Origin: an archaeon
GTDB lineage: Archaea > Undinarchaeota > CAZHTU01 > JBDRCC01
NCBI GenBank assembly: GCA_043822065.1
Contig: JBDRCC010000001.1
Span: 19,332 to 83,331, forward strand
DNA length: 64,000 bases
Direction of reading: 5' to 3'
How positions within the stretch are numbered: the first letter of the stretch is position 1; each line of letters opens with the position of its first letter. A model generated the notes under the pieces. That model had not been told where the DNA came from. It saw only the letters and a program-made list of their open reading frames with translations, and ran no database searches. Positions 28,352 to 44,741 of this stretch are shown piece after piece. The position numbers and the translations under genes are program-made.

Positions 28352-28404
28352 GAATAAGTAGGAATGCATAATCTAAATAAAGAAACTAAAGCATATAAGC
28401 CATT

Positions 28405-30195
28405 ATGAAAATTCTGCTAATAGAGCCCAATGTACAAACATCAAATTACGTGTCCCAACGGGACTACAGGGACAATGGTGAGTTGGAGTCACCATGGGCA
28501 GGCTATCTAGCCGCAGTTATAGGTAGAAGGCATGATATAAAGTTCATAAATTGCTCGTTTCCCCCAACGGATAGTAGCGGATACTTTAGTATTAAAAGAA
28601 AGAAGAGCATTACCGATATTGAAATTTTGAACAACTTTAGAAAGTTCTCACCTTCGGTAGTCGCGTTTACATCTTATGAAAAATCATTTGAGAGAGTAGT
28701 AAAATTGGCAAAAAAGTTCAAGAGGACAAACCCAGCGTGCAAGATAGTCTTAGGTGGGCATTACCCAACGTTCACCTATACGCAATTGTTAGATGGGACG
28801 TGGTGCGATATCGTGGTTGTTGGTGAGGGATTCATTACCATAAAAGAATTAGTGTCATGTATAAACGCTGGAAAAAGCTTTGATGAAGTTAAAGGAATAG
28901 CCTATTTAGAGAATAATAGGATAGTTTATACTGGACGACGGGAGCCATTAAAAGATTTGGACGTTTTACCGTTTCCAGATAGGCAGATATACCCAAAATG
29001 CAAGGAGCTTACGGATAGCAGCATACTAATTATATCGTCGATGGGCTGCCCGTGGGGAAAATGCACATTTTGCAGTATTGGGGCGTTTTATAATGGGCGA
29101 CATTATGCAACACGATCGGCTAAAAACATTCTTGACGAGATTGAGTCAGTAGCTAGGGTAAGGGAAGTAAAATCAGTCCATTTTGTCACGGAAGGGGCAC
29201 TTTATCAGCTAAAAAGCATTATAAATGAAAAAGTAAAACGAGGGCTAAATTTTAAATTTACATTAGAGGCAAGGATTGATGAGATCCTAAGATTTAAAGA
29301 CAGTATAAGCTACGCAAAAAAAAATGGATTGGACGGGTTTCTTATAGGCATAGAAGTATTTTCCGACAGGATTTTAAAAATATTTAATAAAGGTTTGACC
29401 TGTGACAAAATAATATCTGCGCTCGACTACTTAGATGATTTGAGGATACCTAAATTGCTAGCATTTATTCCGTTTTCACCCTGGATAACCCGGGAAGAAT
29501 TTTTATACAATCTTAGAATGATGCTAAATTGCGCAGTCTGGAAAGATCCAAGACTGTATTATATCCCGTTAAACGAAATCTTTCAAGAGGTTGAGTTTTA
29601 CGCTGGAACTGAATTGCGAAAGCAGTATGGTAGGAGTTTAGATTATGAGAATGCGGACCTAAAAAAGGCGCTAGATAGGATGACTCATATACGAAGTATC
29701 AATAAACGCGTAGGGGATGCGGACACTGGCTCAGTAAGACTAAAATGGATCTCACTTGCGAGATATGTAGCTGGCAGTATTAGGGCGAAGAGTAAGTATC
29801 ATGGTAAGGGGATACCTGGGATCGGCCTAAATGCACAATACATAACAATAAACAAAGAAGACACGCCTTGCTTAATAAACAAAGATAGGACAATATATCG
29901 CCTTAATGGAAAGGAGTTGCGCGCAATGAGGGAATTAAAGCAAAAATCGCCTAATTTGTATGAAGAGATAGGGATGGTGATACTGCCCAGCAAGTCATAT
30001 TTAGTAGATGTTATGCGCAAGAGGGCCGCGCCTATAACAAAAGAACAGCTTGTTTTTGCGCAGTATTCTCTAATGGGGTTGACTGAAGGGGAGATACGCA
30101 AGCAATTCGAGTATGAAAAACTGAGGTACGCCCCGGGCAACATAAAAAGGTATTTAAATATAAAGAGAGATAGTTTGTATCGGAGGGAGGTATAA
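28405..30195 (+). CDS. B12-binding radical SAM protein with C-terminal extension
   Basis: B12-binding VLGGHYPT, DIVVVGEG, LPFPDR; cluster motif GCPWGKCTFC; GIE...KG; AT-rich. Confidence 0.9.
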   Translation: MKILLIEPNVQTSNYVSQRDYRDNGELESPWAGYLAAVIGRRHDIKFINCSFPPTDSSGYFSIKRKKSITDIEILNNFRKFSPSVVAFTSYEKSFERVVKLAKKFKRTNPACKIVLGGHYPTFTYTQLLDGTWCDIVVVGEGFITIKELVSCINAGKSFDEVKGIAYLENNRIVYTGRREPLKDLDVLPFPDRQIYPKCKELTDSSILIISSMGCPWGKCTFCSIGAFYNGRHYATRSAKNILDEIESVARVREVKSVHFVTEGALYQLKSIINEKVKRGLNFKFTLEARIDEILRFKDSISYAKKNGLDGFLIGIEVFSDRILKIFNKGLTCDKIISALDYLDDLRIPKLLAFIPFSPWITREEFLYNLRMMLNCAVWKDPRLYYIPLNEIFQEVEFYAGTELRKQYGRSLDYENADLKKALDRMTHIRSINKRVGDADTGSVRLKWISLARYVAGSIRAKSKYHGKGIPGIGLNAQYITINKEDTPCLINKDRTIYRLNGKELRAMRELKQKSPNLYEEIGMVILPSKSYLVDVMRKRAAPITKEQLVFAQYSLMGLTEGEIRKQFEYEKLRYAPGNIKRYLNIKRDSLYRREV

Positions 30196-30196
30196 A

Positions 30197-30379
30197 ATGC
30201 CAGAAATTAAAAAACTTAATCCGCCAACAGTTGACAAAATAGTGACTAACATGGGGAAAGTGAATTTAGCTCCAGAGTCAATAACGGCTATTCGTGGGGT
30301 TATAAAGGAACAGAAAGATGGCGCCGACACAAATATTGTTGACTGCAAAGGCAACCCGAACATGCTGGGTCAGAAATAG
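30197..30379 (+). CDS. Putative RiPP precursor peptide A (60 aa)
   Basis: Starts right after the radical SAM stop behind GGAGGGAGG; shares a VDKIVTNMxxVxL motif with peptide B; single Cys (DCKG). Confidence 0.65.
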   Translation: MPEIKKLNPPTVDKIVTNMGKVNLAPESITAIRGVIKEQKDGADTNIVDCKGNPNMLGQK

Positions 30380-30427
30380 TTAGGATAGTTGTAGTAACAT
30401 ACGCTTTACGCGCTACTTGGCTTTATG

Positions 30428-31798
30428 CTAGTAGCAATTTTTTATTTTTGGCAGGGTATCCTCGATTAGCACGTCATACTCGGCTATATCTATGGGTTTG
30501 GTAAGAAGTCTGCCGAGGAAATATTTCACAACGTCTTTCATTGGGGTGCATATCTCCTTAGACGGTTTGAATAATGATCCTGTGAAGCTAAGATTATTAT
30601 ACGGACAATAGCCCGCGCATATGTACTTACAAAAACAGGAAGCGCAGGCATTTATACGATGGACAGTAATATTTCGTATTAAATTAAGCTTCTTGGGATT
30701 TATGCGCACCTTGTTGCCGTTTATTGAGCCATAAACAAAAGTATTGCATACGCTATCGGTAAGATCGGATGCAACCAAACAAGAGAGTATTTTACCTCTG
30801 GGGTGAACCACAAACAAAGGGCCACTTGAGTTGCATCCATAAATGGTCAACCCAAATGGGCTCATCTGCAGACCCGACAGATAGATGCCATGTTTCTCAG
30901 CAAACTCTATGCAGCGCAATGATTCGTGCACAAACTTTTCAAGATCAGGTAGTTGCAAGGCAGATGCCCTGCCAAACTGCCGGCATGGAGCGAAAGAAAC
31001 CCGCTTTATCTTTAGGGAAACAAAATGCTTAAGAATTTCCATCATACGCCCCTCACAGTATTTTGTAAAGGTTGCAGATACCCCATAGGAAACGCCGTAT
31101 TTATTAAACATGGCTATAGTTCGTCTAACGGAGTGGTATGATTTGTTTCCAGACAGCAAAGGCCGCTGTGCATTCTGAATAGAGGGGGGACCGTCAAAAG
31201 AAAGCTGGACATGCGCGCCGATTTTTTTAAACCATTTAACCTGCGATTCATTCAATGTCCCGTTAGTGGTAGAGCTAACCCTGAGTTCAATCCCTCGTGC
31301 ATCACACTCCTTTTTTGCATAAGAGTAACAGCGTTTCATTAAATCAAACGCAAGGCTGGGTTCGCCTGCAGAAAAAAGCGATAGAAGGAAGGTTTTGTCA
31401 CTTTTTTTAATTCCGTAGTCTATTGCTGTCTTTGCTATGCTCCACGGCATGTAATAAACCGTAGTACTGCCAGTATTGGAACAACAATAAGTACAGCGCA
31501 TATTGCAATCAGTAGTCAATAGGAGAGTTACAGTAGGTATGGTAGATAACGCCGCCCTCAAGGTAGGCACGGTATCTTGGGAGTCAACGAATTTGAAAAA
31601 TCCTGTGACTAATCGGTGATTAGTATTTCTTTGCTCTACAAATTCCTTGTTTACGAGCGCAAGTATTCCCTTTTTTGGGACATAAATTATGTACTTGTTC
31701 GATTCGTAGGGAATAGTAAAGTGTTTGGATTTTGTTTTTGAAGGAACTGTCTTAGAATAACATATTTTCACGCTTTTGTATATCTTAGGCGCAGCCAT
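30428..31798 (-). CDS. Radical SAM/SPASM-domain peptide maturase
   Basis: CNMRCTYC, AGEP, TTNG, LSFDGP; SPASM C-x-...-GKILSC and CASCFCKYICAGYCP...C. Confidence 0.9.
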   Translation of the reverse strand: MAAPKIYKSVKICYSKTVPSKTKSKHFTIPYESNKYIIYVPKKGILALVNKEFVEQRNTNHRLVTGFFKFVDSQDTVPTLRAALSTIPTVTLLLTTDCNMRCTYCCSNTGSTTVYYMPWSIAKTAIDYGIKKSDKTFLLSLFSAGEPSLAFDLMKRCYSYAKKECDARGIELRVSSTTNGTLNESQVKWFKKIGAHVQLSFDGPPSIQNAQRPLLSGNKSYHSVRRTIAMFNKYGVSYGVSATFTKYCEGRMMEILKHFVSLKIKRVSFAPCRQFGRASALQLPDLEKFVHESLRCIEFAEKHGIYLSGLQMSPFGLTIYGCNSSGPLFVVHPRGKILSCLVASDLTDSVCNTFVYGSINGNKVRINPKKLNLIRNITVHRINACASCFCKYICAGYCPYNNLSFTGSLFKPSKEICTPMKDVVKYFLGRLLTKPIDIAEYDVLIEDTLPKIKNCY

Positions 31799-31871
31799 TG
31801 AAGTGTAGTACCTACCTAACTTTAAATAGTATTTGACAATATTTATATCCTATTGCCATATTATATTATTG

Positions 31872-32003
31872 ATGGTTTCAGTAGTGCACCCACTATTAAA
31901 AAAGGATGTAGAACGGATTGTTTCAAACTTGAAGAACTTGCATTTGGAGGATGCAGAGGCTAATGAGTTTATTGAACAGATAAGTGATCTATGTAGTGGC
32001 TAA
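31872..32003 (+). CDS. Putative RiPP precursor peptide B (43 aa), not in ORF track
   Basis: MVSVVHPLLKKDVERIVSNLKNLHLEDAEANEFIEQISDLCSG*; TTTATA about 25 nt upstream; motif shared with peptide A. Confidence 0.65.
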   Translation: MVSVVHPLLKKDVERIVSNLKNLHLEDAEANEFIEQISDLCSG

Positions 32004-33010
32004 GAGAGTTGATTGATAAGATACGCTATTCTTTGTCTTTGTGTTTCTGTTTTTGATTGAGCCAACTCGTGTTTCAATATCTGGATGGCAGTATCGAAGT
32101 TTTCACGAGGGGGAAATTCTATAAACAGATTTTTTTTCGTCAGCTTTTTTCCAATATACGCCTCGACGATCTTCTTTTCTGATTGTTTAGCTGGGATGGG
32201 TCTATCGCTCTGTAAAAAAGCGCGTGCAAAGGAAGTTATAAAATATTTTTTTCTGTTTGGGAGAATGTGGTCGATATCTGAAAATAAGCGATATAACGCC
32301 AACACTCTAAAACGAGGCTCAGTATTTGGCATTACGCCCTCCCAGGTACCGCCATACGTAGGTTCAAAATCAGCTATTTCCCCTTCAGTCGTTATGTTGT
32401 TTAATTCCATAGCACCATGGTATAGCCCAATATCAAACATTTTTCTTATGCTCTTGCCAAGGGTACTTGCGAGATAGTTGCAGTATTCCTTTTCAGTTTG
32501 TTTGCGGATCGCAAGATAGGCGTTTAGTATATCTGTTTCGAAGAGGAAGTCTGAGAGCCGCAACGGAGAAGCGAATGTTCTGGCAATAACTGCTAGTTTC
32601 TTCCCCTCGAAGGTACCATAATCGTAGCAACCAACTGGCCTCTGGCAAAAGACCCCTGCGTTAAATGCTATTTTAGAGAGATTATGTTCTGCTAATGCTG
32701 TGGGGAGTTCAACTCCGCCCCATGCAAACCGGTTTAGTAGCCGTATCTTTTGCCCCTCAAAACCAATCCCTTTGTATTCTATTCCAGGATACCATTGGTC
32801 CCCAGATCTCCACGGGACATAGAACCAAGCTGATCTTGATGAGTGGCTTTCAAGGCAGGTAATGTTCCCAGGGCGTACTGACAAGGCTGGAACGGGAATC
32901 TGCACATGTTCTTTAAAATAGAATTTTGTTTTTGCAGTTGAAAAATTATAACACTTGGGGTAGACCCTCCGGCTTAGTTTCCATACGTCCTCCAAAAAGT
33001 TCTTGACCAT
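32000..33010 (-). CDS. SelO/YdiU-like atypical kinase-fold protein
   Basis: YKGIG, ALAEH, ARTFASPLRLSD and YHGAMELNNITTEGEIADFEP follow the order and spacing of SelO KGxG, alphaC Glu, R-x-S-x-R and HGVMNTDN...DFGP. Confidence 0.6.
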   Translation of the reverse strand: MVKNFLEDVWKLSRRVYPKCYNFSTAKTKFYFKEHVQIPVPALSVRPGNITCLESHSSRSAWFYVPWRSGDQWYPGIEYKGIGFEGQKIRLLNRFAWGGVELPTALAEHNLSKIAFNAGVFCQRPVGCYDYGTFEGKKLAVIARTFASPLRLSDFLFETDILNAYLAIRKQTEKEYCNYLASTLGKSIRKMFDIGLYHGAMELNNITTEGEIADFEPTYGGTWEGVMPNTEPRFRVLALYRLFSDIDHILPNRKKYFITSFARAFLQSDRPIPAKQSEKKIVEAYIGKKLTKKNLFIEFPPRENFDTAIQILKHELAQSKTETQRQRIAYLINQLS

Positions 33011-33121
33011 GTCTGTGCACTTAGAAGTACCAATAGGGGATTTATATAGCTTACTTTGCAGAATACGAACACTTCATCTTGAGGCAAATGTTAAATAAAT
33101 GTAGCTATAAGAGAGTATACG

Positions 33122-34429
33122 ATGAGAATAGCTTTGATAACCCCAGTCCAGACGTTTAATAGGGCAGTTGAGATTATTCCATACCCAAGTCTTGGATTAC
33201 TATATCTCGCAGCGTATCTTGAAAAAAAAGGACATAAGGTAAGAATAATAGACCTGCCTTTTTTAATGATAAAAAACAAGGAGAATATGACTTTTTCTAG
33301 GGTTAGAGAGATTCTCAAAGAGTACAACCCAGATGTGATTGGGATAACCACACGGTGCCTGGATTATCCTTTTGATATACTGCTAGCACGGAATATAAAG
33401 AGGTTCATCAAAAAACCAATAATCTTTGGAGGTGTGCAGGCAACGCATACTGCTTACGACACGATAAAGGAGTTCAAGTGGGTAGATTTTGTTGTGAAGG
33501 GGGAGGGAGAGGTAACATTTATTGAACTCTTGACCGCCATTAAGGAAGGCAGACCATTCAATGAGGTGAGAGGTATTGTGTATAGAGAGGGCAACCGCGT
33601 AATTGAAACGAAAGACCGCCCATTCATTGAGGATATTGACTGTCTTCCTTTGCCAGCGTATCATTTGATACCAAAAGTAAAGAAGTACGGTTTAGACGCA
33701 ATCCCTCTCATAACAACACGTGGGTGCCCCTTCAACTGCGCTTTCTGTTCGGTCTCAACAATGTGGAAAAGGACATTACGATGTAGGGGTGTACGCAGCA
33801 TTATGCAGGAGATTAAACGGGAAAGAAAACGGCAGGGATTGAACCATGTTTCAATAAAGGATGACACGTTTACAGTAGATAATAGACGGCTCAAGATTTT
33901 GTGTAGAGAGTTCAAAAAAGAGGGAGTTACGTGGACTTGCTTTTCAAGGGTAGACACGATAGATGAAGATATGCTTGAGCTTATGAAGGATAGTGGGTGT
34001 AACGGTATTTTTTATGGTGTTGAGTCAGCTTCGGTAAGAATACTGAAAAAAATAAGAAAGGGTGATAAAAGATTTTTGGAGAATGCCAGAAAAAATATTA
34101 AGAAGTGCCATGAGCTAGGTTTAGAACAGATTGTGTCGTTTATAATAGGATTTCCTAGTGAAACTGAGAAAGAAATCGCTAAAACGGTTGATATGGCGGA
34201 GAAAATGAAAAAACGGGGTTGCTCTACACAAGTTCATTTCCTCAGCCCGCTCTCTGGGTCGGACATCTATAAGAGCAATAAGAACAATTTAATATTTGTA
34301 GGCCACTCGTCAGACGTATCTAGTGTCCGTGGCTTGAGTAAGAAATATGTGGATTTGATAAAGAAGTACCCACATATTTTCCCTCAATTTTATATTATTA
34401 AAAACAGTGCACTTGCGAAATGGATTTAG
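33122..34429 (+). CDS. B12-binding radical SAM protein (class B methyltransferase-like)
   Basis: PSLGLLYLAAYL, IFGGVQAT, VVKGEGE, TTRGCPFNCAFC, DDTF, GVES, FIIGFPSET. Confidence 0.92.
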   Translation: MRIALITPVQTFNRAVEIIPYPSLGLLYLAAYLEKKGHKVRIIDLPFLMIKNKENMTFSRVREILKEYNPDVIGITTRCLDYPFDILLARNIKRFIKKPIIFGGVQATHTAYDTIKEFKWVDFVVKGEGEVTFIELLTAIKEGRPFNEVRGIVYREGNRVIETKDRPFIEDIDCLPLPAYHLIPKVKKYGLDAIPLITTRGCPFNCAFCSVSTMWKRTLRCRGVRSIMQEIKRERKRQGLNHVSIKDDTFTVDNRRLKILCREFKKEGVTWTCFSRVDTIDEDMLELMKDSGCNGIFYGVESASVRILKKIRKGDKRFLENARKNIKKCHELGLEQIVSFIIGFPSETEKEIAKTVDMAEKMKKRGCSTQVHFLSPLSGSDIYKSNKNNLIFVGHSSDVSSVRGLSKKYVDLIKKYPHIFPQFYIIKNSALAKWI

Positions 34430-34443
34430 GCGTTTTACGCGAT

Positions 34444-36087
34444 TCAATTAAAAAATTTATCAAAGTTGATTAGCAGTTCTTGTGAGTCTTCATCCTTGAG
34501 CAATACTCCTTTTCCGACTGTGTTGTAGACCAAGTCGATATGCATACTGCAAGAGATGTCACCGTAAAAATTTGTATTCCGACCAAGTGCAATATGGAAT
34601 GAGTTTCTTTGCTTTTCATCGAGTAATGGGCTGCCAATTGGTCTATTGCCAAGGAAACCTATGCCAAACTCACCCATGTACGGGAAGCTATCAGTATCCC
34701 CAAAGCTCTTTGCTTGGTCAAACATTTCCGCAACCACTTTAGAATTGCGAGCTGCAGACCATTTGGCTACCTTTCCGTTTTTAAAAGTAAGATGCAGACC
34801 TTCAATTTTTTTTCCAAAGTAGAATACCTCATCGAATAGTATTTTGCCATTTGTTTTTTCTTTTAGCGGTGCGATAAAGACTTCTCCTGATGGGATATTA
34901 AGGGAATATTTGGCGCCTTCTTTCTGCTCGTCATCTATCAAAGCCCTGCGACCGTCCGTACTAAACCTCAGCTCAAGCGAACCATCTTTAGAGGACAACA
35001 AGAGATTTTTGCGATTTCCTATAAGAAGTTTAGCGTTATGCATTTTTTCGCGAGGCAGATTTAAAAAAATAGAGAGGGCGTCCTCGAGAACCCTGCAAAG
35101 GTCAGTATAATTAGAATAACTTAGTGCTGATCTGTTTGCTTTGAAATCAGAATAGCTAGGGTAATCCACTAGTATATGTGTGGCATGCCTGTGCCTTTTT
35201 TCGATAACCTCCTTAAGAGTATCAGAAAACCTTTGCGGTTTCCATTTGATTTCGTGGCCAGATGCATTATCCTCTTTCATAAAGTTTATCGTCCCGTTGA
35301 CATAAGCTGCCCGGTTGTAGTCCGACTTTCGCATCACATTGAGTATAGCATTATGCGCATCGCGGTTTAAGGCTACAAAATATTTTAGGTCCCCAGCATC
35401 ACCAGTCCCATGGCAGCCTTTCTTCCAAAGGGCATCTAAAAGAGAATACGCCATTTGTAGAATAGCTGGAACGCCAAATTCAGTACCTATACTTACCCAA
35501 GACTTTTTGGGGTAGTCATAAAAATCGTTAACTATGTAATCCGCAAGCTTTGCATGATTTGGATAAGCAAATTCCATAAGACGAGCGCGCTGTTTGGCAG
35601 TGTAGGTGTAATAAATCCGTTTCCCATTTTTTAATTTCAAGAAGCGAGTTCGAGGATATCCTGGAAAAGCAGGTTGGAATATGGTTAGTAGGTCTTGACC
35701 GGCTACATTTGTATGGTTAAGATATTGTGAAAAGTTTTTTGATTTTTCTTTGTTTAGATCATTTTCATCAAAACGCGAAAAAACTATTCTTTTATTGAAA
35801 TCGGACTTCAATTTTTCCGAAAAAATGGAGTCATAGCGCCTATCGTCAAAAATGCAGATTTTGGAAAGGGCGCCCACTTTAGCAAATTTCTCGGTCAGGG
35901 AGTACGCAAGTTCTATTTGAGCTAAAACATTTGGGTTGATTTCAAAGAGGATGTCATCCTTTTCAGATGGATCTATTCTGGTGACTATTTCCTCTTCTAG
36001 CCCCATTGGGTAACAGTACCTGCTAGTTGCTTTTGTGAGTGAGGGGCTGTAGGATATGTACGGATCCATAGAATATACTTGTACCAA
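34444..36087 (-). CDS. M29-family aminopeptidase with extended divergent N-terminus
   Basis: NIPSGEVFIAP, GEFGIG, LLDEK...HIALG, MHIDLV metal-ligand motifs; start uncertain (TTG 36087 or ATG 36069). Confidence 0.75.
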   Translation of the reverse strand: MVQVYSMDPYISYSPSLTKATSRYCYPMGLEEEIVTRIDPSEKDDILFEINPNVLAQIELAYSLTEKFAKVGALSKICIFDDRRYDSIFSEKLKSDFNKRIVFSRFDENDLNKEKSKNFSQYLNHTNVAGQDLLTIFQPAFPGYPRTRFLKLKNGKRIYYTYTAKQRARLMEFAYPNHAKLADYIVNDFYDYPKKSWVSIGTEFGVPAILQMAYSLLDALWKKGCHGTGDAGDLKYFVALNRDAHNAILNVMRKSDYNRAAYVNGTINFMKEDNASGHEIKWKPQRFSDTLKEVIEKRHRHATHILVDYPSYSDFKANRSALSYSNYTDLCRVLEDALSIFLNLPREKMHNAKLLIGNRKNLLLSSKDGSLELRFSTDGRRALIDDEQKEGAKYSLNIPSGEVFIAPLKEKTNGKILFDEVFYFGKKIEGLHLTFKNGKVAKWSAARNSKVVAEMFDQAKSFGDTDSFPYMGEFGIGFLGNRPIGSPLLDEKQRNSFHIALGRNTNFYGDISCSMHIDLVYNTVGKGVLLKDEDSQELLINFDKFFN

Positions 36088-36156
36088 GGGCTATAAAAAG
36101 AATAGCATGGAGGGATAAACGTTAAATAAGCGCAGATACTTCTTACCTGCGGGGAC

Positions 36157-36795
36157 ATGGAAGTAAAGATTGCGCCATCGATTTTATCAGCGGATTTTGC
36201 AAGGCTAGAGGACGAGATAAAGCGCATCGAGGACGTGGCGGATTGGATTCATGTCGATGTGATGGACGGGCACTTTGTGCCGAACATATCAATCGGCGTA
36301 CCTGTGGTGCGGAGCGTAAGCAGGATTACCGACCTGCCGATTGACACCCACCTGATGATAAGCAACCCGATGGGCTTCCTAAAGCCGTTTTCGGAGGCGG
36401 GGTCGGACTACATATCCGTGCACGCGGAGGTGTGCAAGGACCTTTCAGAGCCGATAGCTGCTATACACGGGCTTGGCAGGAAGGCAGGGGTGGTATTCAA
36501 CCCCAATACGGGGGTCAAGCCGCTCTGGAATGTGATTGACGAGGTGGATTACGTGCTTGTTATGGCGGTCATGCCGGGCTTCTCCGGGCAGAAGTTCATG
36601 CCCGAGGTCCTGAAGAAGGTCGAGGAGATAAGGAACCGGTCCGACATCGACATCCAGGTGGACGGCGGGATAAATATTAATAATGCGAAGTCATGTGTAG
36701 AAGCTGGGGCAAACATTCTCGTTGCCGGAAACGCTGTCTTCAAGGCGGAGGACCCGCGGAAGGCGGTGTTAGAGCTTAAAGAGTGCGCTGAATGA
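36157..36795 (+). CDS. rpe: Ribulose-phosphate 3-epimerase
   Basis: IAPSILSADF, HVDVMDGHFVPN, PGFSGQKF, VDGGI. Confidence 0.96.
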   Translation: MEVKIAPSILSADFARLEDEIKRIEDVADWIHVDVMDGHFVPNISIGVPVVRSVSRITDLPIDTHLMISNPMGFLKPFSEAGSDYISVHAEVCKDLSEPIAAIHGLGRKAGVVFNPNTGVKPLWNVIDEVDYVLVMAVMPGFSGQKFMPEVLKKVEEIRNRSDIDIQVDGGININNAKSCVEAGANILVAGNAVFKAEDPRKAVLELKECAE

Positions 36796-37601
36796 GGGTT
36801 GAGGAACTCGAGATAAAGGCAAGAGAGATACGGCGCGACATCATCGGGATGCTCGCCGAAGCCGGCTCAGGCCACCCCGGCGGCTCGCTGTCAATAGCTG
36901 ATATTCTTACGGTTCTTTATTTCCACAAGATGCGCCACAGGCCGAAGGAGCCGAAGTGGCAGGACAGGGACAGGTTCGTCCTGAGCAAGGGGCACGGCGC
37001 GCCTGCGCTGTATGCCGTTCTTGCGGAGGCTGGCTATTTCCCGAAGGATGACTTGAAGACCCTGCGGAAGCTTGGCTCGCACCTCCAGGGGCACCCGGCC
37101 CAGCACAAGACGCCAGGCGTCGAGGCTTCGACCGGCTCGCTCGGGACTGGGTTGTCGCAGGCGTGCGGGATGGCGCTTGCCGGAAAGCTCGACAAAAAGG
37201 ATTATAGGGTTTATGCCGTGGTCGGGGACGGCGAATGCGACGAAGGGCAGATTTGGGAAGCCGCGATGTCGGCGGCGCACTACAAGCTCGACAATTTATG
37301 CGTTTTCCTTGACAGGAACTGCATCCAGCTTGACGGGTTCACGGACAAGGTGATGTGCCTGGGCGATATTTCTGCAAAGTGGAAGGCGTTCGGCTGGAAT
37401 GTCGTTGGGATTGACGGGCATGACGTCAGGCAGATAGTAAAGGCGCTCGATGATGCTGAAACGGTGAAGGGAAAGCCGACGATGATTGTTGCAAAGACTG
37501 TCAAGGGGAAGGGTGTCTCGTTCATGGAGAACAAACCCGAGTGGCACGGCGTAGCCCCGAACAAGGAGCAGACTGCAAAGGCGCTGGAGGATCTGAAATG
37601 A
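36792..37601 (+). CDS. Transketolase, N-terminal subunit
   Basis: SGHPGGSLS, DRFVLSKGH, TGSLG, GDGECDEG TPP motif. Confidence 0.95.
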   Translation: MRVEELEIKAREIRRDIIGMLAEAGSGHPGGSLSIADILTVLYFHKMRHRPKEPKWQDRDRFVLSKGHGAPALYAVLAEAGYFPKDDLKTLRKLGSHLQGHPAQHKTPGVEASTGSLGTGLSQACGMALAGKLDKKDYRVYAVVGDGECDEGQIWEAAMSAAHYKLDNLCVFLDRNCIQLDGFTDKVMCLGDISAKWKAFGWNVVGIDGHDVRQIVKALDDAETVKGKPTMIVAKTVKGKGVSFMENKPEWHGVAPNKEQTAKALEDLK

Positions 37602-38542
37602 AGGGCACGAAGACCTCTATCAGGGACGTCTACGGGGACACCCTCGTCGAGCTAGGGAAGTCAAACAGGGACATAGTCGTTCTTGACGCCGACCTTTCGT
37701 GCTCGACGAAGACTGAGAAGTTCGGAAAGGCTTACCCGGAGAGGTTCTTTAATATGGGAATCTCAGAGGCGAACATGATAGGATATGCCGCCGGGCTGAG
37801 CCTCTGCGGGAAGATACCGTTTGCCTCGTCTTTTGCAATGTTTGCGGCGGAGAAGTGCTTTGAGCAGATAAGGAACACCCTCTGCTATTCTAGCCTGAAT
37901 GTCAAAATAGTCGCGACGCATTCCGGGATAAGCGTCGGCCCTGACGGCGTGTCGCACCAGGCGATTGAGGACATCGGAATAATGCGCGGATTGCCGAACA
38001 TGAAAGTATGGGTGCCTGCGGACGGAATCCAGACGCGCGAGATGATACACGAGGCGGCTAAGGTCAAGGGTCCGCAGTACATCCGCTTAAGCAGGGTAAA
38101 GTTCCCTGATCTGTATGATGAGGGATACAAGCTGAAGGACAAATGTGATGTCCTAAGGGAAGGGAAAGACGTTACGATTATCGCCTGCGGGCTTGAGGTT
38201 TCAGAAGCCCTGAAAGCGGCTGACAAGCTCAAGGAAAAGAAAATAGACGCTGCCGTCCTGAACATGCACTCGATAAAGCCGCTGTGCGAAGGGTGCGCCG
38301 TGAAGTGGGCGAAGAAGACAGGACGGGTCGTGACTGCTGAGGAGCATAGCATAATAAACGGGCTCGGGAGCGCGGTTTCAGAGGTCCTTGCCGAAAAGTA
38401 TCCTGTGCCGGTCGGAAGGGTCGGGCTGAGGGACGCATTCGCAGAATCCGGCGAGCAGGAAGAGCTATTCAGGAAGTACGGGCTGGATTCTGACGCAATA
38501 GCTAAAAAGGTCGTCGAGATAATGAAGGCGGGGGAGAAATGA
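37598..38542 (+). CDS. Transketolase, C-terminal subunit
   Basis: DADL, GISEANM, DGVSHQ, EEH; ATG 37598 overlaps the upstream stop. Confidence 0.95.
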   Translation: MKGTKTSIRDVYGDTLVELGKSNRDIVVLDADLSCSTKTEKFGKAYPERFFNMGISEANMIGYAAGLSLCGKIPFASSFAMFAAEKCFEQIRNTLCYSSLNVKIVATHSGISVGPDGVSHQAIEDIGIMRGLPNMKVWVPADGIQTREMIHEAAKVKGPQYIRLSRVKFPDLYDEGYKLKDKCDVLREGKDVTIIACGLEVSEALKAADKLKEKKIDAAVLNMHSIKPLCEGCAVKWAKKTGRVVTAEEHSIINGLGSAVSEVLAEKYPVPVGRVGLRDAFAESGEQEELFRKYGLDSDAIAKKVVEIMKAGEK

Positions 38543-40124: not shown

Positions 40125-40665
40125 GGACTGCCGTGTTTATTAAGGGGTAGAAGACCCAAACGGTGATAATGCTTTTTATGTAGCCGATGGGCATGGTGAC
40201 CCCGAGATATAAGCGCGGGAGGTAGAGGATTGACTGCTCGATGACGACTGCTATGGCGACGAGCTTGACAAGGTTCCCATAGTGGTGGGTCAGAAAGACA
40301 AACGCGTAGACGGCAACTATCCATCCTATGAACCGCAGGAGGCACTTCAGGCCGTCGTCGACGTTGTTAAGCTGTATCCACCTTGCAACGTAGATGTTCA
40401 GGAATATGATTGGAATCGCCCATTTCGGCCCGAACCAAAAGGCGATGTAATATGGCGTATATGTCTGGATGTCTATGGTGTGCGGGAGCTCGGGTATCTG
40501 CATTAGATAGCACTTCGTAGTTAGCCCAAGCCAGACAAGAAATGCGCCCACGCCCCACCTTGTGTCCCACATAGAGGCTGCGAGGAAGAGGCAGACTGCA
40601 GTAATCCCAAAGTAGAGCCTCTCGGAGGTCTTGTTTTGGGACCATATTGAGACTGGGAATTTCAT
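40090..40665 (-). CDS. Hypothetical membrane protein
   Basis: 191-aa hydrophobic ORF filling the gap between two + strand genes. Confidence 0.6.
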   Translation of the reverse strand: MKFPVSIWSQNKTSERLYFGITAVCLFLAASMWDTRWGVGAFLVWLGLTTKCYLMQIPELPHTIDIQTYTPYYIAFWFGPKWAIPIIFLNIYVARWIQLNNVDDGLKCLLRFIGWIVAVYAFVFLTHHYGNLVKLVAIAVVIEQSILYLPRLYLGVTMPIGYIKSIITVWVFYPLINTAVPMAAFAAYYLL

Positions 40666-40758
40666 ATTCTCCCGGAGTATGCTTAAGCCGGCAATCAGCT
40701 TAAACCCTGTGGCTGGAGCATAGAAGCCTATAAAAGTGAAAAACGGCTAAAAAAGCCC

Positions 40759-41661
40759 ATGTTTGAGGTATTCTTTCTCGGCACCGGGGCTGCAATCCCA
40801 TCGAAGGACAGGGGGCACACGACCATCGCTGTCAGGCGGAACGGCGAGATAACCCTCCTTGACTGCGGCGAGGGCGCACAGCGCGAGATGATAAAAAACG
40901 GCCTGAGCATCATGAAGGTCAGGCGCATACTCATAACCCACCTGCACGCGGACCATGCCGCCGGGCTTTTTTCCCTCCCGCAGAGCCTTTACCTGCTGAA
41001 CAGGCGGGAGCCGCTCGACATCTACGGGCCGAAGGGCATAAAGTCGATGGGAACTGCATTCGAGAAGTTCTTCTTCTTTGAGCCGGACTATGCGATAAGG
41101 TACCACGAGCTGCCGGAGGAAGAGGCGCTTGTCTATTCCGACAGCGAGATTGAAATCAGGTCGGTCGGCGTCGAGCACAGCCTCCCGACGGTTGCATATT
41201 CCATAAGGGAGAAAGACAGGCTGCACCTGGACGCCAAGAAGGCGAACGGGCTTGGGGTGAAGCCTGGGCCGCTGAGGAAAAATCTGACGGACGGGAAGGA
41301 CATAGTGGTCAACGGGAAAAAGGTAAGGTCGAAGGACGTGACCAAGCTTGAGAAGGGGCTGAAGATTTCGTATTCCGGGGACACCGCGCCCTGCCAGTCA
41401 TTCAAGAAGCTTGCAAGGGATTCGGACCTGCTTATCCACGAGGCGACTTTCAGGGCGGAGAAGGAGGCAGAGTCCAAGGAGTACGGGCATTCGACTTCGG
41501 TCGGCGCGGCAAAGGTCGCGAAGGAGACGAATTCGAAAAAGCTTGCCCTTGTGCACATCAGCCCCAGGTACGAGGAGCCCAAAGAGCTGGAGAAAGAGGC
41601 GAAAGCGGTGTTCAGGAACACGGTTGCCTCCAAAGACGGCATGAAGCTTGTGCTAAAATGA
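40759..41661 (+). CDS. rnz: Ribonuclease Z
   Basis: FLGTG, DCGEG, THLHADH, GP exosite, SGDT, HEATF, GHST, HISPRY. Confidence 0.95.
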   Translation: MFEVFFLGTGAAIPSKDRGHTTIAVRRNGEITLLDCGEGAQREMIKNGLSIMKVRRILITHLHADHAAGLFSLPQSLYLLNRREPLDIYGPKGIKSMGTAFEKFFFFEPDYAIRYHELPEEEALVYSDSEIEIRSVGVEHSLPTVAYSIREKDRLHLDAKKANGLGVKPGPLRKNLTDGKDIVVNGKKVRSKDVTKLEKGLKISYSGDTAPCQSFKKLARDSDLLIHEATFRAEKEAESKEYGHSTSVGAAKVAKETNSKKLALVHISPRYEEPKELEKEAKAVFRNTVASKDGMKLVLK

Positions 41662-41684
41662 AGCCGGAGCTTGAGGAAGAGTGA
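41658..41684 (+). pseudogene. Probable remnant of the original tyw1 5' end (MKPELEEE*)
   Basis: ATG overlaps the rnz stop (ATGA), has host-like codons, and resembles ELQEA at the start of the current Tyw1. Confidence 0.5.
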
Positions 41685-41762
41685 GTTTTCCTAAAGTATT
41701 ACTGGCAATCTACTATCTCGAGACGTGTATAACTCATGAAACAAAAGAGTTATTAAAAGCTT

Positions 41763-43148
41763 ATGAGATATCCCATTCAGTTCGTTGCAAAAATATGTTA
41801 CGATAAGAGGTCGCACTACTGCGTTGTTATGCCAAAGAAATTATGTGTAGACAACTCTCTGCACTCCGGTGACATTCTTAAGCTGAGAATCGGTGAAAAG
41901 ACTATATTTGTAAAGTTAAAAAGACGGTGCAAATCACTTACATTTACTATTAGCGCTAAGATAGGTAGAATGTTTGATACAAAGGAAAATGTTACAATTA
42001 TGGAAAAGTTGGAACTTAGAAAACCTGATAGTGAGGATATTGTTTTTGAAGGGGGTAATGTAGACCTTTATAGGTCACTGCCAATATACTCCACTAGAGC
42101 TAAATTAGAATGGAATTACTGTTTATTGGACGATTCTCTACTACTATGCATAGAACCTAAACATGTACGCGGAACGGAATTTAAATACATAATAGTTCCT
42201 CAGTACCTTGATGTCGAAAAGCTAGGTTTGATGTGTGGGTTGATCTTTTCTGATGGTTTCAAAAAATTTGGCTTTGAGGATTTCTATGGTGAAAAATGTA
42301 AGACTACTACTACGTTTCAATTCACCAATGGAGATCCTTGTGTAATAAAATTATTTACGACATTAACGAGAGATTTACTCGAGATAGAACCATCTGAGTA
42401 CAACGGAAATTTGTCATTTCCGCAGAAACTTTCTGAAGAGAAGACAGATAAAATTAGAAGATTCTGGGAAGATTCTTATGGTGTTAGGATTAAGTTAATA
42501 TCTTTTAGAGATACTAAGAATAATAAGTGTCCGTGGGGGATAGCTACTATTAGGATACATAAAATGGTATTGGCAGAATTCGTCGTGAGTCTGCTCAGAA
42601 AATTGTTGAAGTGGACACTCTGCTCTCAAGACAAATTGGCGTACATTTTTAAGAAAGAGTTTATCAGAGGCGCATTAATAGGTGATGGCTCACCGATACT
42701 CGACAAAGGTGTATTGAGACGGTATATGATAAGTATCGAAACTAAAAAAGAGGGCGAACTTTACGTAGAACTGCTGAATTCTCTTGGAATAGAATCTCGG
42801 CTGTTATGGACGAAAGATGAGAAGGTAGCACCATATTTGAGGAAGGTTGATCTGCGAGGAGAATATAAATTCCTAGAAAAAATAGTTTATGCCTTTCCGC
42901 TTGGCATATTTATTAACGGCGACTTTTTAGGGTCTTTAGAGAAAGAACTAAAAGCGCTTCATGGATTGTTTCGACATTCTAAGTGCCATGTTAAAGATCA
43001 CAAAAAGTTAATAGACCTTGCTGAGAAGATAGATGTGAGGTTTAAAGCTGATTTATATAAACTTAAAGAAGCTGGTATTCAACTCCCAAAAGTTTATGAG
43101 GAGTACTGCCTAAATAGAATACCATTGCCTATCAAAAGTAGAAAATAA
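41763..43148 (+). CDS. Free-standing double-motif LAGLIDADG homing endonuclease with AbrB-like N-terminus
   Basis: LMCGLIFSDG and FIRGALIGDGS motifs, FTNGD; N-terminal VVMPKKL...LHSGDIL; AT-rich; no intein Cys1/His-Asn ends. Confidence 0.75.
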   Translation: MRYPIQFVAKICYDKRSHYCVVMPKKLCVDNSLHSGDILKLRIGEKTIFVKLKRRCKSLTFTISAKIGRMFDTKENVTIMEKLELRKPDSEDIVFEGGNVDLYRSLPIYSTRAKLEWNYCLLDDSLLLCIEPKHVRGTEFKYIIVPQYLDVEKLGLMCGLIFSDGFKKFGFEDFYGEKCKTTTTFQFTNGDPCVIKLFTTLTRDLLEIEPSEYNGNLSFPQKLSEEKTDKIRRFWEDSYGVRIKLISFRDTKNNKCPWGIATIRIHKMVLAEFVVSLLRKLLKWTLCSQDKLAYIFKKEFIRGALIGDGSPILDKGVLRRYMISIETKKEGELYVELLNSLGIESRLLWTKDEKVAPYLRKVDLRGEYKFLEKIVYAFPLGIFINGDFLGSLEKELKALHGLFRHSKCHVKDHKKLIDLAEKIDVRFKADLYKLKEAGIQLPKVYEEYCLNRIPLPIKSRK

Positions 43149-43151
43149 GAG

Positions 43152-44075
43152 ATGTATAAAAGTTTTGCTGGAGAGTTACAAGAAGCATTGAAAAAGCAAC
43201 ACTATGGTATATTCGGTAAACATTCTGCCGTAAAAGTTTGCGAATGGACGAAAAAAAGTTTGACGGAGAATAATGTATGTTATAAAGAATCCTTCTATAA
43301 AATAAAGAGCCACCAGTGCATGGAGATGACTCCTGCCGCCGGCTTCTGCAACTTCAGGTGCACGTACTGCTGGAGGAAGCACGAGCTGAACCAAGGTGCA
43401 GATATGGAGGGGATTAAGATAGACGAGCCGGCTGGCATTATTGACGGCCTTGTCCAGGAGCGGAAAAAGCTGCTTATCGGGTTCAAGGGGAATGATAAGG
43501 TTGACCAAAAAAAGCTGCAGGAGGCGATGAGCCCGAAGCACGCCGCGATTTCGCTGACGGGGGAGCCTACGCTTTACCCGAAGATTGGGGAGATGATTGA
43601 TGAGTTCCATAAGAGGAAGATGACGACGTATTTGGTTACGAACTGCTCGCGGCCGGATGTGCTTGAAAAAATACCGGAGCCGACCCAGCTGTACCTGAGC
43701 GTGACATCGCCGACTGAGGAGGCATTCAAGCGGATTAATGTTCCGCTGGAACGGGGCGCCTGGAGTAAGGTGCAAAAGACGCTGGAGCTTGTGCCGAGCT
43801 TCTCATGCCCGACCGTGATGCGGCTGACCATGATTGCAGGGCACAACATGGGCTTGGGCAGGGAGTTCGCGAAGGTCGTCAGCAGGGCTCAGCCGAGGTA
43901 TGTGGAGGTAAAAAGCTTTATGCTGATTGGCGGGGCGAGGCACAGGAACCTGACCCTGGACAACATGCCGAAGCATGAGGAGCTCAGGGAATTCTCAAGG
44001 AAGCTTGCGGAAGAGACATCATATAGTATTAAGGACGAAAAGGCAGACTCGAGAGTAGTGCTACTTAGCAAGTGA
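43152..44075 (+). CDS. tyw1: 4-demethylwyosine synthase (radical SAM)
   Basis: HSAVKVCEWTKKSL, CYKESFY, SHQCMEMTP, CNFRCTYCWR, HAAISLTGEPTLYP, YVEVK, SRVVLL. Confidence 0.93.
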   Translation: MYKSFAGELQEALKKQHYGIFGKHSAVKVCEWTKKSLTENNVCYKESFYKIKSHQCMEMTPAAGFCNFRCTYCWRKHELNQGADMEGIKIDEPAGIIDGLVQERKKLLIGFKGNDKVDQKKLQEAMSPKHAAISLTGEPTLYPKIGEMIDEFHKRKMTTYLVTNCSRPDVLEKIPEPTQLYLSVTSPTEEAFKRINVPLERGAWSKVQKTLELVPSFSCPTVMRLTMIAGHNMGLGREFAKVVSRAQPRYVEVKSFMLIGGARHRNLTLDNMPKHEELREFSRKLAEETSYSIKDEKADSRVVLLSK

Positions 44076-44098
44076 GCAGCTGGGGCTGCCAGATTTTT

Positions 44099-44216
44099 TG
44101 GTGTATGTTTGGTGTAGGTTGGTGTATGTTCACCTACACCAGCATTTTACCTACACCAACCTATTTTTCAGGATATGGGGGTGTAGTTTGTGTAGTTAGT
44201 GCAGTTAGTGTAGTTA
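44099..44216. repeat. Cluster of short GTGTAG-core direct and inverted repeats
   Basis: TGGTGTA(T/G)GTT x3 (44099-44130), inverted ACCTACACCA x2 (44132-44158), GTG(T/C)AGTT(T/A) x4 (44181-44216). Confidence 0.8.
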
Positions 44217-44741
44217 TGCGCCTTTAAGCCCCTATAGTGCTATAGTGCAGTAGCGATTTCTTGCTGCGGCACGCCAGCCAAACGCCCGGTCCGGGCGCCA
44301 TTTGCCGGCTTGGCTGCGCAGGTGCGGAAACGCCTATCATGCGGGCGCAGCCCGCATGAACGTCCCCCCCGATAATATGGGGAGCTTTGCTCCCCTAGAT
44401 TTGATTGTTAGGCTCGCGGCGCGCGCGGCCAGGCGGGCGCTGGCGCTTATGAAAAACCTGGGAATTTGGCGCCCGAAGCGCGCTTTTGGAAGCCGGGCGG
44501 AAGGTGCAAATACAATTTTACGTAAATATATTTACGGAAGAAAATTAACAACGAAATAATTAGGTGGATTTTGTCAGATCGATGTCGCCTCTTCATCGCC
44601 CGAAGATGCAGCAGGCATGATGGGCATCAGTGGGTGTACACGTCGTCATCCAAAACCCATTATGTTTTGTTTTGTGCCTATTTAAGGATTTAGAGCGGGC
44701 ATGGGATATCTATTTTAGCTGGTTCCGACTAAAGTTTCCCG

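Follow-up and report, generated by a model that had tools for sequence, protein, structure and literature searches.

A LAGLIDADG gene outside intron and intein that appears to have entered archaeal tyw1 together with a replacement 5' end

This analysis concerns a locus within a 64,000-nt stretch of archaeal DNA (contig JBDRCC010000001.1; hereafter the window, from the 1.03-Mb, 82% complete assembly G000), in which a long open reading frame (ORF) for a 461-residue LAGLIDADG-type protein lies between the RNase Z gene rnz and the tRNA-modification gene tyw1. The genes are tightly packed: rnz is directly followed by an 8-codon mini-ORF, and a 3-nt spacer separates the stop codon of the 461-codon ORF from the start of an intact tyw1 (Table 1). 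A preliminary description of the sequence had listed these four elements, all of which were recovered where it had placed them, and had interpreted the long ORF as a free-standing homing endonuclease gene (HEG) that invaded tyw1 and supplied a replacement for its first ~50 codons (159 nt).

The base composition sets one segment of the locus apart from its surroundings. The hand-counted values of the preliminary description proved exact (32.1% GC in nt 1–159 of tyw1, 56.7% in the following 120 nt), and GC is likewise low in the HEG (35.9%) and in the spacer (32.1%); GC at third codon positions (GC3) of tyw1 is ~0.3 in codons 1–50 and ~0.8 beyond. Maximum-likelihood change points in GC place the left border of the segment at 41677–41686 and the right border at 43307, within codon 52. 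Across the genome, 1.6-kb segments (n=4964) have a mean GC of 0.529 with a standard deviation (SD) of 0.033 and a minimum of 0.354: The segments over the cassette island, at 0.358–0.396, lie ~5 SD under this mean, and the low-GC island is no chance fluctuation. Within this DNA of 36% GC, the HEG frame stays open across 461 codons. We also considered a transposon and rejected it, as neither terminal inverted repeats nor flanking direct repeats are present at 41685/43307.

Table 1. Features of the rnz–HEG–tyw1 locus and of related loci. Coordinates refer to the window unless a locus (L) is named.
Feature	Location	Strand	Evidence or remark
rnz (RNase Z), resident upstream gene	40759..41661	+	NCBIfam TIGR02651 (RNase_Z), E 4.7e-97
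Mini-ORF MKPELEEE, 8 codons, TGA stop	41658..41684	+	ATG overlaps rnz stop; GC 0.52, host-like
Low-GC cassette, probably imported (HEG relic, HEG ORF, replacement tyw1 5' end)	41685..43306	+	GC 0.32-0.36 vs 0.529 genome; change points
Decayed relic of HEG N-terminal extension	41694..41762	+	In frame with HEG; interrupted by two TAA
Free-standing two-motif LAGLIDADG endonuclease gene (HEG), 461 aa	41763..43148	+	Fold and motifs
HEG N-terminal beta-barrel, residues 1-87, AbrB-like or swapped-hairpin type (predicted)	41763..42023	+	Structural matches
LAGLIDADG motif 1 LMCGLIFSDG, predicted catalytic Asp164	42228..42257	+	Conservation and model
LAGLIDADG motif 2 FIRGALIGDGS, predicted catalytic Asp308	42660..42692	+	Conservation and model
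Intact tyw1	43152..44075	+	TIGR03972, E 1e-116, 389 bits (cutoff 318)
tyw1 5' end, probably imported, codons 1-51 and part of 52	43152..43306	+	GC 0.32, GC3 ~0.3; change point 43307
HEG-linked junction motif of the window, FYKIKSHQC (canonical FYGI.SH.C), putative former target site	43293..43319	+	Gly to Lys
Resident tyw1 body, codons 52-307	43307..44075	+	GC 0.546, GC3 ~0.8; Pfam Radical_SAM and Wyosine_form
tyw1 stub	L022:3-86		Profile E 3.6e-12
tyw1 stub	L026:1600-1725		Profile E 5e-11
tyw1 stub	L023:1312-1401		Profile E 1.9e-7
tyw1 stub	L025:247-330		Profile E 1.3e-3
MiaB-type stub, 20 codons	L028:3797-3856	-	Pfam UPF0004 positions 1-19, E 0.0013
HEG-linked junction motif	L022		FYGINSWRC
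HEG-linked junction motif	L023		FYGIHSYSC
HEG-linked junction motif	L024		FYGLATHRC
HEG-linked junction motif	L025		FYGISTLGC
HEG-linked junction motif	L026		FYKDMGIESHRC

The NCBIfam scan of the 461-residue protein gave no match. Its AlphaFold model (pLDDT 87.4, pTM 0.89) was subjected to structure comparison (VIA), in which residues ~148–410 match PI-PfuI (Z 14.6, root-mean-square deviation (rmsd) 3.2, 187 aligned residues), I-Tsp061I (Z 13.4) and I-DmoI (Z 12.8). WhiA is also among these matches (Z 13.2 and 12.1) and was met again in Foldseek, where the best matches are LAGLIDADG enzymes with I-DmoI at a probability of 1.00 and a TM score (target) of ~0.6. According to the model, the protein contains the tandem alpha-beta-beta-alpha-beta-beta-alpha LAGLIDADG core, in which motif 1 ends the helix 151–165 and motif 2 ends the helix 291–308. 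Moreover, D164 and G165 of motif 1 (..FSDG) as well as G307, D308, and G309 of motif 2 (..IGDG) are invariant in all 12 aligned family members. By fold and motifs the protein is a predicted monomeric two-motif LAGLIDADG homing endonuclease; it would cleave the HEG-less allele site-specifically, at a target predicted from the stub junction and the junction-motif variants. Residues 1–87 form a separate beta-barrel in the model that matches 2glw (Z 10.3, rmsd 2.9, 80 of 92 residues aligned), which we take to be a single-chain swapped-hairpin (AbrB-type) barrel, and 2d9r (Z 10.1). At the level of the modeled fold, these matches support the AbrB-like N-terminus that had been proposed earlier; the Pfam domain MazE_antitoxin is absent in the window protein, weak in two of five close homologues, and passes its cutoff in a single distant relative, P0011 (29.4 bits). 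The barrel may serve autoregulation or, with no less probability, act as an additional DNA-contacting module in target recognition.

The distribution of the endonuclease is sporadic. A search of 5.8 billion proteins returned the window protein itself and five homologues with 34–37% identity, and a search of 1.84 billion proteins gave 23 representatives at E<=0.001, of which four, the window protein included, fall under 1e-30; the LAGLIDADG_3 cutoff is reached by 11 of 25 scanned relatives, all of them distant ones. Within the window's phylum the HEG was found in one of 17 genomes, namely the window's own. Pattern scans gave four metagenome loci (L022–L025) and one locus in a metagenome-assembled genome of the Aenigmatarchaeota (L026); in the phylum of the latter, the close form occurs in one of 371 genomes, and distant relatives in ten further ones. 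In each of the five, the end of the HEG runs 4–11 nt into the start of tyw1, and the upstream neighbours vary; the loci have a GC content of 27–33%, except for L026 with 44%. The order of tyw1 stub, HEG, and tyw1 recurs in four of these archaeal loci, which supports the central claim of the preliminary description that a free-standing LAGLIDADG gene entered tyw1 and provides its 5' end.

What the uninterrupted locus may have looked like is indicated by the closest genome, G001 from the same order, in which Tyw1 is 53% identical. This genome has the window's synteny of methyltransferase, rnz, tyw1, and flippase without the insert: rnz ends at position 1496 of locus L003, and tyw1 starts at 1498. 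No relative closer than G001 was present in the collections searched, and the best match to the C-terminal part (C-part) of Tyw1 among the 5.8 billion proteins is 57% identical. The mini-ORF MKPELEEE had been regarded as a relic of the old tyw1 start. Its position between rnz and the HEG fits this assignment, whereas the empty allele of G001 begins with MLPSEF; by position only, the mini-ORF is probably a remnant, or stub, of the resident tyw1 start.

To look for stubs in the other loci, a profile was constructed from 115 N-terminal parts (N-parts) of Tyw1, excluding the window and HEG-linked genes, and the DNA upstream of each HEG was searched with it in pieces translated in six frames. The profile detected a decayed copy of the tyw1 N-terminus directly upstream of the HEG in four of the five loci (Table 1), and no stub match in the 152 nt present upstream in L024. 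The stub piece is separated from the HEG ATG by 21–25 nt that are part of a conserved block common to the five loci: TTTATAWATA, 3–4 nt, AGTTYTATGGTATTAT, and the ATG. Read in frame, this block encodes ..YK..FYGI, and it aligns with the stretch TGT TAT AAA ... TTY TAY GGN ATT of intact tyw1 DNA. Since the stub reaches the FYGI codons (~codon 51) and the HEG starts right after them, the other junction is predicted at codon 51/52 of the downstream gene. In the window this junction corresponds to 43305–43307, and the independently determined GC change point lies at 43307. Judged from these sequences, the insertion point is tyw1 codon 51/52, within the conserved coding motif FYGI.SH.C. Because the junction derived from the stubs matches the GC change point, the 51 imported codons would be the payload of the cassette and not a long co-conversion tract. 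The invasion and the replacement 5' end of the preliminary description consequently stand, and its boundary is refined to codon 51/52. Furthermore, when each stub was compared with the adjacent new 5' end, its own copy ranked 46/122, 109/109, and 28/56 in three loci and 1/119 in L026: The stub is no close copy of the adjacent 5' end in three of four loci, which argues for import and not for duplication in place.

The same stubs bear on an alternative in which everything between the mini-ORF and the new 5' end of tyw1 would be spliced out as a HEG-bearing intron of the bulge-helix-bulge, group I, or group II type. An in-frame fusion of the mini-ORF with the tyw1 behind it is conceivable, and archaeal rRNA introns carry LAGLIDADG genes, as illustrated by the matches to I-DmoI and I-Tsp061I. 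Against this, the tyw1 found downstream is complete and has a start of its own, no Rfam match was obtained in 40500–44500 at E<=1, and the junction duplex of -16.1 kcal/mol is not distinguished from shuffled sequences, which have a mean of -16.6 kcal/mol and of which 107 of 200 are at least as stable. Moreover, the residues that the stub encodes in the other loci are encoded again by the new 5' end, which makes splicing unnecessary. We therefore regard an intron as highly improbable. Likewise, Pfam detects no intein splicing domain in the 461-residue protein.

If the FYGI.SH.C motif is the target, its sequence in HEG-linked genes should be informative. For comparison we compiled 113 other Tyw1 proteins (the best 120 C-part matches, five N-part matches, G001, and G002, minus 13 without the region), in which the Gly of the motif is kept in 110 and the His in 106. 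The invariant Gly or His is altered, or an insertion is present, in five of the six HEG-linked sequences and in eight of the 113 others (Fisher 4e-5, relatedness ignored), the latter being the top matches to the window Tyw1, picked by similarity and not by genomic context, so that they are not a random sample and the contrast is weakened accordingly. When the five proteins chosen for N-part similarity are left out, four of 108 deviate (Fisher 5e-6). Four of the eight deviants (P0029, P0031–33) are the best N-part matches of the window and may be HEG-linked themselves. The motif variants fit immunity of the rebuilt site against cleavage and thereby lend indirect support to the earlier proposal that the cut site was removed. 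As a separate observation, insertions or substitutions at FYGI.SH.C occur in Tyw1 of L017 (G031), P0029, P0031–P0033, P0044, P0080, P0115, and P0139, and tyw1 of L017 has no HEG upstream; such motif-deviant proteins may represent alleles with resistance or traces that earlier cassettes left behind.

The tyw1 gene of the window looks functional from its sequence, in that all six cluster cysteines and the lysine of the CYK motif are kept. The activity of TYW1 requires two Fe-S clusters with three cysteines each (PMC5352715). In the window, the imported part encodes C30, C43, and the CYK lysine, and the resident part encodes C56 and the CxxxCxxC radical-SAM motif. With C30 and C43 being imported and C56 being resident, the site of the auxiliary cluster would be chimeric.

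The recurrent association with tyw1 also admits a reading in which no homing is involved: The LAGLIDADG/AbrB-like protein could be a domesticated, WhiA-like DNA-binding factor that acts as an operon partner or regulator of tyw1, and the low-GC patch would then reflect the usual kind of horizontal transfer, by which part of an operon was replaced. The structural matches include WhiA, a transcription factor of LAGLIDADG origin, the N-terminal domain is AbrB-like, the coupling to tyw1 is tight in all six loci, and the divergence of the HEG roughly tracks that of Tyw1. A regulator, however, is difficult to reconcile with the invariance of both catalytic aspartates in 12 of 12 family members and with the extremely sporadic distribution, and displaced tyw1 5' stubs point to insertion into a gene and not to recruitment into an operon. 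The altered junction motif in HEG-linked copies likewise speaks against it, as does the window's copy, whose promoter and N-terminus are gone and which seems dispensable. On balance we consider domestication improbable.

A second cassette composed of stub, HEG, and gene was found in the same genome outside the window, on contig C22:1192-3856 (locus L028). Its stub (Table 1) is 50% identical to residues 3–20 of the gene downstream (E 2e-5) and is followed by a low-GC ORF of 420 aa (419 residues scored) that matches LAGLIDADG_3 above the cutoff with 23.7 bits. A gene for a MiaB-like methylthiotransferase (UPF0004, Radical_SAM, TRAM) begins 2 nt after this ORF; its GC3 is ~0.35 over codons 1–190 and ~0.8 in the remainder. 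Since the window HEG has no match to the C22 ORF at E<=0.01, the latter is an independent element of identical layout.

The window's own copy bears signs of decay. Close homologues carry ~60 extra N-terminal residues, and the 78 nt before the HEG ATG (41685–41762) are in frame, align to the later part of this extension, and contain two TAA codons: A homologue profile (A1) matches from model position 32, beginning at 41694, and continues through both stops, so that ~31 N-terminal HEG codons are absent from this copy. The resident stub is reduced to eight codons, and the promoter block of the family has no match in the window at <=3 mismatches. The cassette may stem from a diverged AT-rich donor, its left end having been joined illegitimately on arrival, or else ~220 nt were deleted later. 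Probably the copy is beyond its mobile phase and is read through from rnz; judging by its sequence, we consider it doubtful, though a real possibility, that it still encodes an active nuclease. We also examined whether the ~60-residue extension is itself a relic of the Tyw1 N-terminus and rejected this, as BLASTP placed it at inconsistent positions with a best E of 0.047 in a tiny database.

These irregularities lead to a further alternative, in which the patch came from an AT-rich relative through recombination, ordinary or homology-facilitated illegitimate, and the HEG is a dead passenger that never homed in this lineage. The irregular left junction with only eight stub codons left, the 5' truncation of the HEG, and the two in-frame TAA codons of its relic are what such an event might leave behind, and no conspecific, be it HEG-less or HEG-bearing, is at hand for comparison; nor do public sequencing runs appear for 40800–44000. 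The right boundary, on the other hand, falls on the position predicted by the stub junction of the family. Repair at a defined cut site should produce such an agreement, and a random crossover would be unlikely to do so. In addition, a cassette of identical layout exists elsewhere in G000, and the frame of 461 codons is still open in DNA of 36% GC. A mere passenger consequently has only a small chance of being the correct explanation.

We consider it likely that the island is a free-standing LAGLIDADG cassette that sits inside tyw1 at a conserved motif and carries a replacement 5' end (codons 1–51), without intron or intein. This reading is carried by what was observed: the composition and boundaries of the island, the fold and catalytic motifs of the enzyme, its linkage to tyw1, the stubs, the variant junction motifs, and the second case. 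In the mechanism that we propose, the enzyme would cut an uninterrupted tyw1 at FYGI.SH.C, and the break would be repaired from a cassette-bearing allele, in the course of which the HEG and the new 5' end would be copied in. The resident 5' end would thereby be severed from the gene body and decay as an upstream stub, while tyw1 would be rebuilt from the imported 5' part and the resident body and be translated directly after the HEG. The rebuilt junction would depart from the canonical motif and thus resist re-cleavage. In full-length members of the family, the stub closes at its 3' end with the CYK..FYGI codons, of which those for CYK, reading TGTTATAAA in AT-rich genomes, could form a TATA-like box centred ~25 nt upstream of the HEG ATG. 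In archaea, a box at this distance from the ATG would give a leaderless mRNA. The box may accordingly be read as the HEG promoter, yielding a leaderless HEG mRNA with tyw1 on the same transcript, and such a role would explain why this end has stayed conserved and the remainder of the stub decays.

Several points weigh against the cassette in tyw1 as just described. The window protein misses the gathering score of Pfam LAGLIDADG_3 (19.1 bits against a cutoff of 22.5, E 0.0015), and its family assignment therefore rests on fold and motifs. Its 8-codon stub gives no significant profile match, and its HEG, lacking the promoter block and the N-terminal extension of all close homologues, may be inactive. 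The identity between HEGs of different loci (32–65%) roughly tracks that of the Tyw1 C-parts (39–65%), so much of the family history could be vertical. With regard to the phylogenetic check suggested in the preliminary description, namely separate trees for the two parts of Tyw1, the protein level offers only a weak loss of concordance: The rank correlation between N- and C-part is low for the window (Spearman 0.035, rank 7/113, median 0.56), which is suggestive only. The N-part (residues 9–55) is 68% identical to its best match P0031, close to the 62–66% found with the closest C-part relatives P0034–36, and only 40–51% identical to other HEG-linked N-parts. These identities point to no particular donor lineage and show no clear discordance between N- and C-part, and the argument for import is carried by composition and not by phylogeny. 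The C22 endonuclease has matches in 33 of 371 genomes of another phylum, and among 12 inspected loci none has a stub and none lies upstream of a MiaB-like gene. Finally, cleavage, target site, homing, expression, promoter use, and activity of the window's copy are steps that we infer.

From the tyw1 and C22 cassettes a wider proposal can be formulated, which we regard as possible while stopping short of calling it probable: Small archaea of the DPANN type may harbor an unrecognized class of free-standing LAGLIDADG cassettes that invade the coding sequence of conserved genes (tyw1, a MiaB-like methylthiotransferase gene, a PHP-domain gene) with a replacement 5' end, use the displaced codons (TGTTATAAA of CYK in this case) as a TATA promoter, and exchange between lineages the N-termini with which essential enzymes bind their cofactors, in such a way that an Fe-S site is composed of imported and resident cysteines.

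By analogy of layout, the closest known counterpart appears to be the free-standing HEGs of mitochondria that are associated with duplicated ends of their host genes; free-standing HEGs in fungal mitochondria accompany partial duplications of atp6, cox1, and the N-terminus of atp9 (PMC7487136). Both kinds of element are located at the end of a gene and outside any intron or intein, the gene stays intact owing to a duplicated segment, and the segment that was displaced turns into a pseudogene. An Allomyces atp6 hybrid gene is reportedly of the same mitochondrial type. In our loci, a displaced and decaying end of the host gene lies beyond the HEG in four of the five homologous loci and in C22, and the replacement end has a foreign character: Codons 1–51 of tyw1 share the low GC and GC3 of the HEG, and codons 1–190 in C22 do likewise. 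Unlike the mitochondrial elements, the present one resides in an archaeal chromosome, targets a radical-SAM tRNA-modification gene, replaces a 5' end, has a predicted AbrB-like N-terminal domain, and apparently uses the stub codons as HEG promoter.

Intronless homing is known from phages, where it involves the free-standing Seg and Mob endonucleases of T4-like phages (PMC2790892, PMC2988022, PMC2330249). Seg and Mob share with our element that they are free-standing, that cleavage of a HEG-less allele followed by repair would copy the flanks, and that site differences would protect. They differ in being GIY-YIG or HNH enzymes encoded between genes of phages, whereas the element described here is a chromosomal LAGLIDADG gene with a duplicated gene end that lies inside coding sequence: Its insertion at codon 51/52 departs from the intergenic position of the phage type. 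I-DmoI, I-Tsp061I, and PI-PfuI resemble it in the fold with two acidic LAGLIDADG helices (Z 12.8–14.6), in having an archaeal host, and in a highly conserved target motif. In contrast to these, it comprises neither intron RNA nor an intein splicing domain, the latter being present in the intein on contig C19 (see below), and the replacement gene end would spare the host at the DNA level. A further parallel is provided by 'fractured genes', in which split inteins occur with a free-standing HEG between gene halves (PMC2677866). These resemble tyw1 in having a free-standing HEG within a former single gene and a device that restores the product, the latter being protein trans-splicing in fractured genes and a single complete ORF with a duplicated 5' end in tyw1.

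According to the introduction of a 2026 paper, the targets of a free-standing HEG are in general restricted to intergenic sites, so that no host gene is disrupted (PMC13619312). The tyw1 locus and its relatives suggest a way around this limit at the DNA level in archaeal chromosomes, in that the element itself brings the gene end that it displaces. In the main text of open-access papers and preprints we found no paper linking a homing endonuclease with TYW1 and no account of archaeal LAGLIDADG genes that are free-standing and accompanied by duplicated gene ends. The locus suggests tyw1 codons ~44–60 as a concrete, testable target of a LAGLIDADG enzyme with a new specificity and an additional, putatively AbrB-like domain, and it outlines how essential enzymes could become mosaic in the N-terminal parts that bind their cofactors. 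It would also account for puzzling short ORFs or pseudo-starts upstream of such genes and furnishes a search rule for further cases, namely to look ahead of free-standing HEGs for stubs that resemble the 5' end of the gene behind the HEG.

Further endonuclease elements were noticed along the way. In a distant AbrB-LAGLIDADG subfamily, the endonuclease gene lies directly upstream of a PHP-domain gene and overlaps its start (L033, L035, L039, L040, all from genomes of the phylum of L026); a short N-terminus stub is present in L035:2526-2585 and in none of the other three loci (1/4). Contig C19 of G000 (35543-38326; L029:1044-3824) encodes a 927-residue PHP-domain protein with a low-GC intein (Intein_splicing 98.8 bits, LAGLIDADG_3 69.4 bits), and the PHP-domain gene family is common to this intein host and the four loci just named. 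The three endonuclease elements seen in G000 are all AT-rich relative to the host. Other distant relatives of the HEG are convergent to and abut the 3' end of a TFB gene (L034, L038, L041) or of a fibrillarin-like gene (L031). A mirror layout with a displaced 3' stub was considered for such cases and rejected, as L031, L034, and L038 contain no convincing stub.

Elsewhere in the window, after an ABC transporter gene, a 6-kb low-GC island (28070–34270, ~39% GC) contains three genes for radical-SAM proteins, of which two have B12-binding domains, and an ORF without family match; it looks like a separately acquired biosynthetic cluster. Another low-GC island of 1.6 kb is located on contig C6 of G000 (73140-74712) and contains two adjacent ORFs of 298 and 223 residues.

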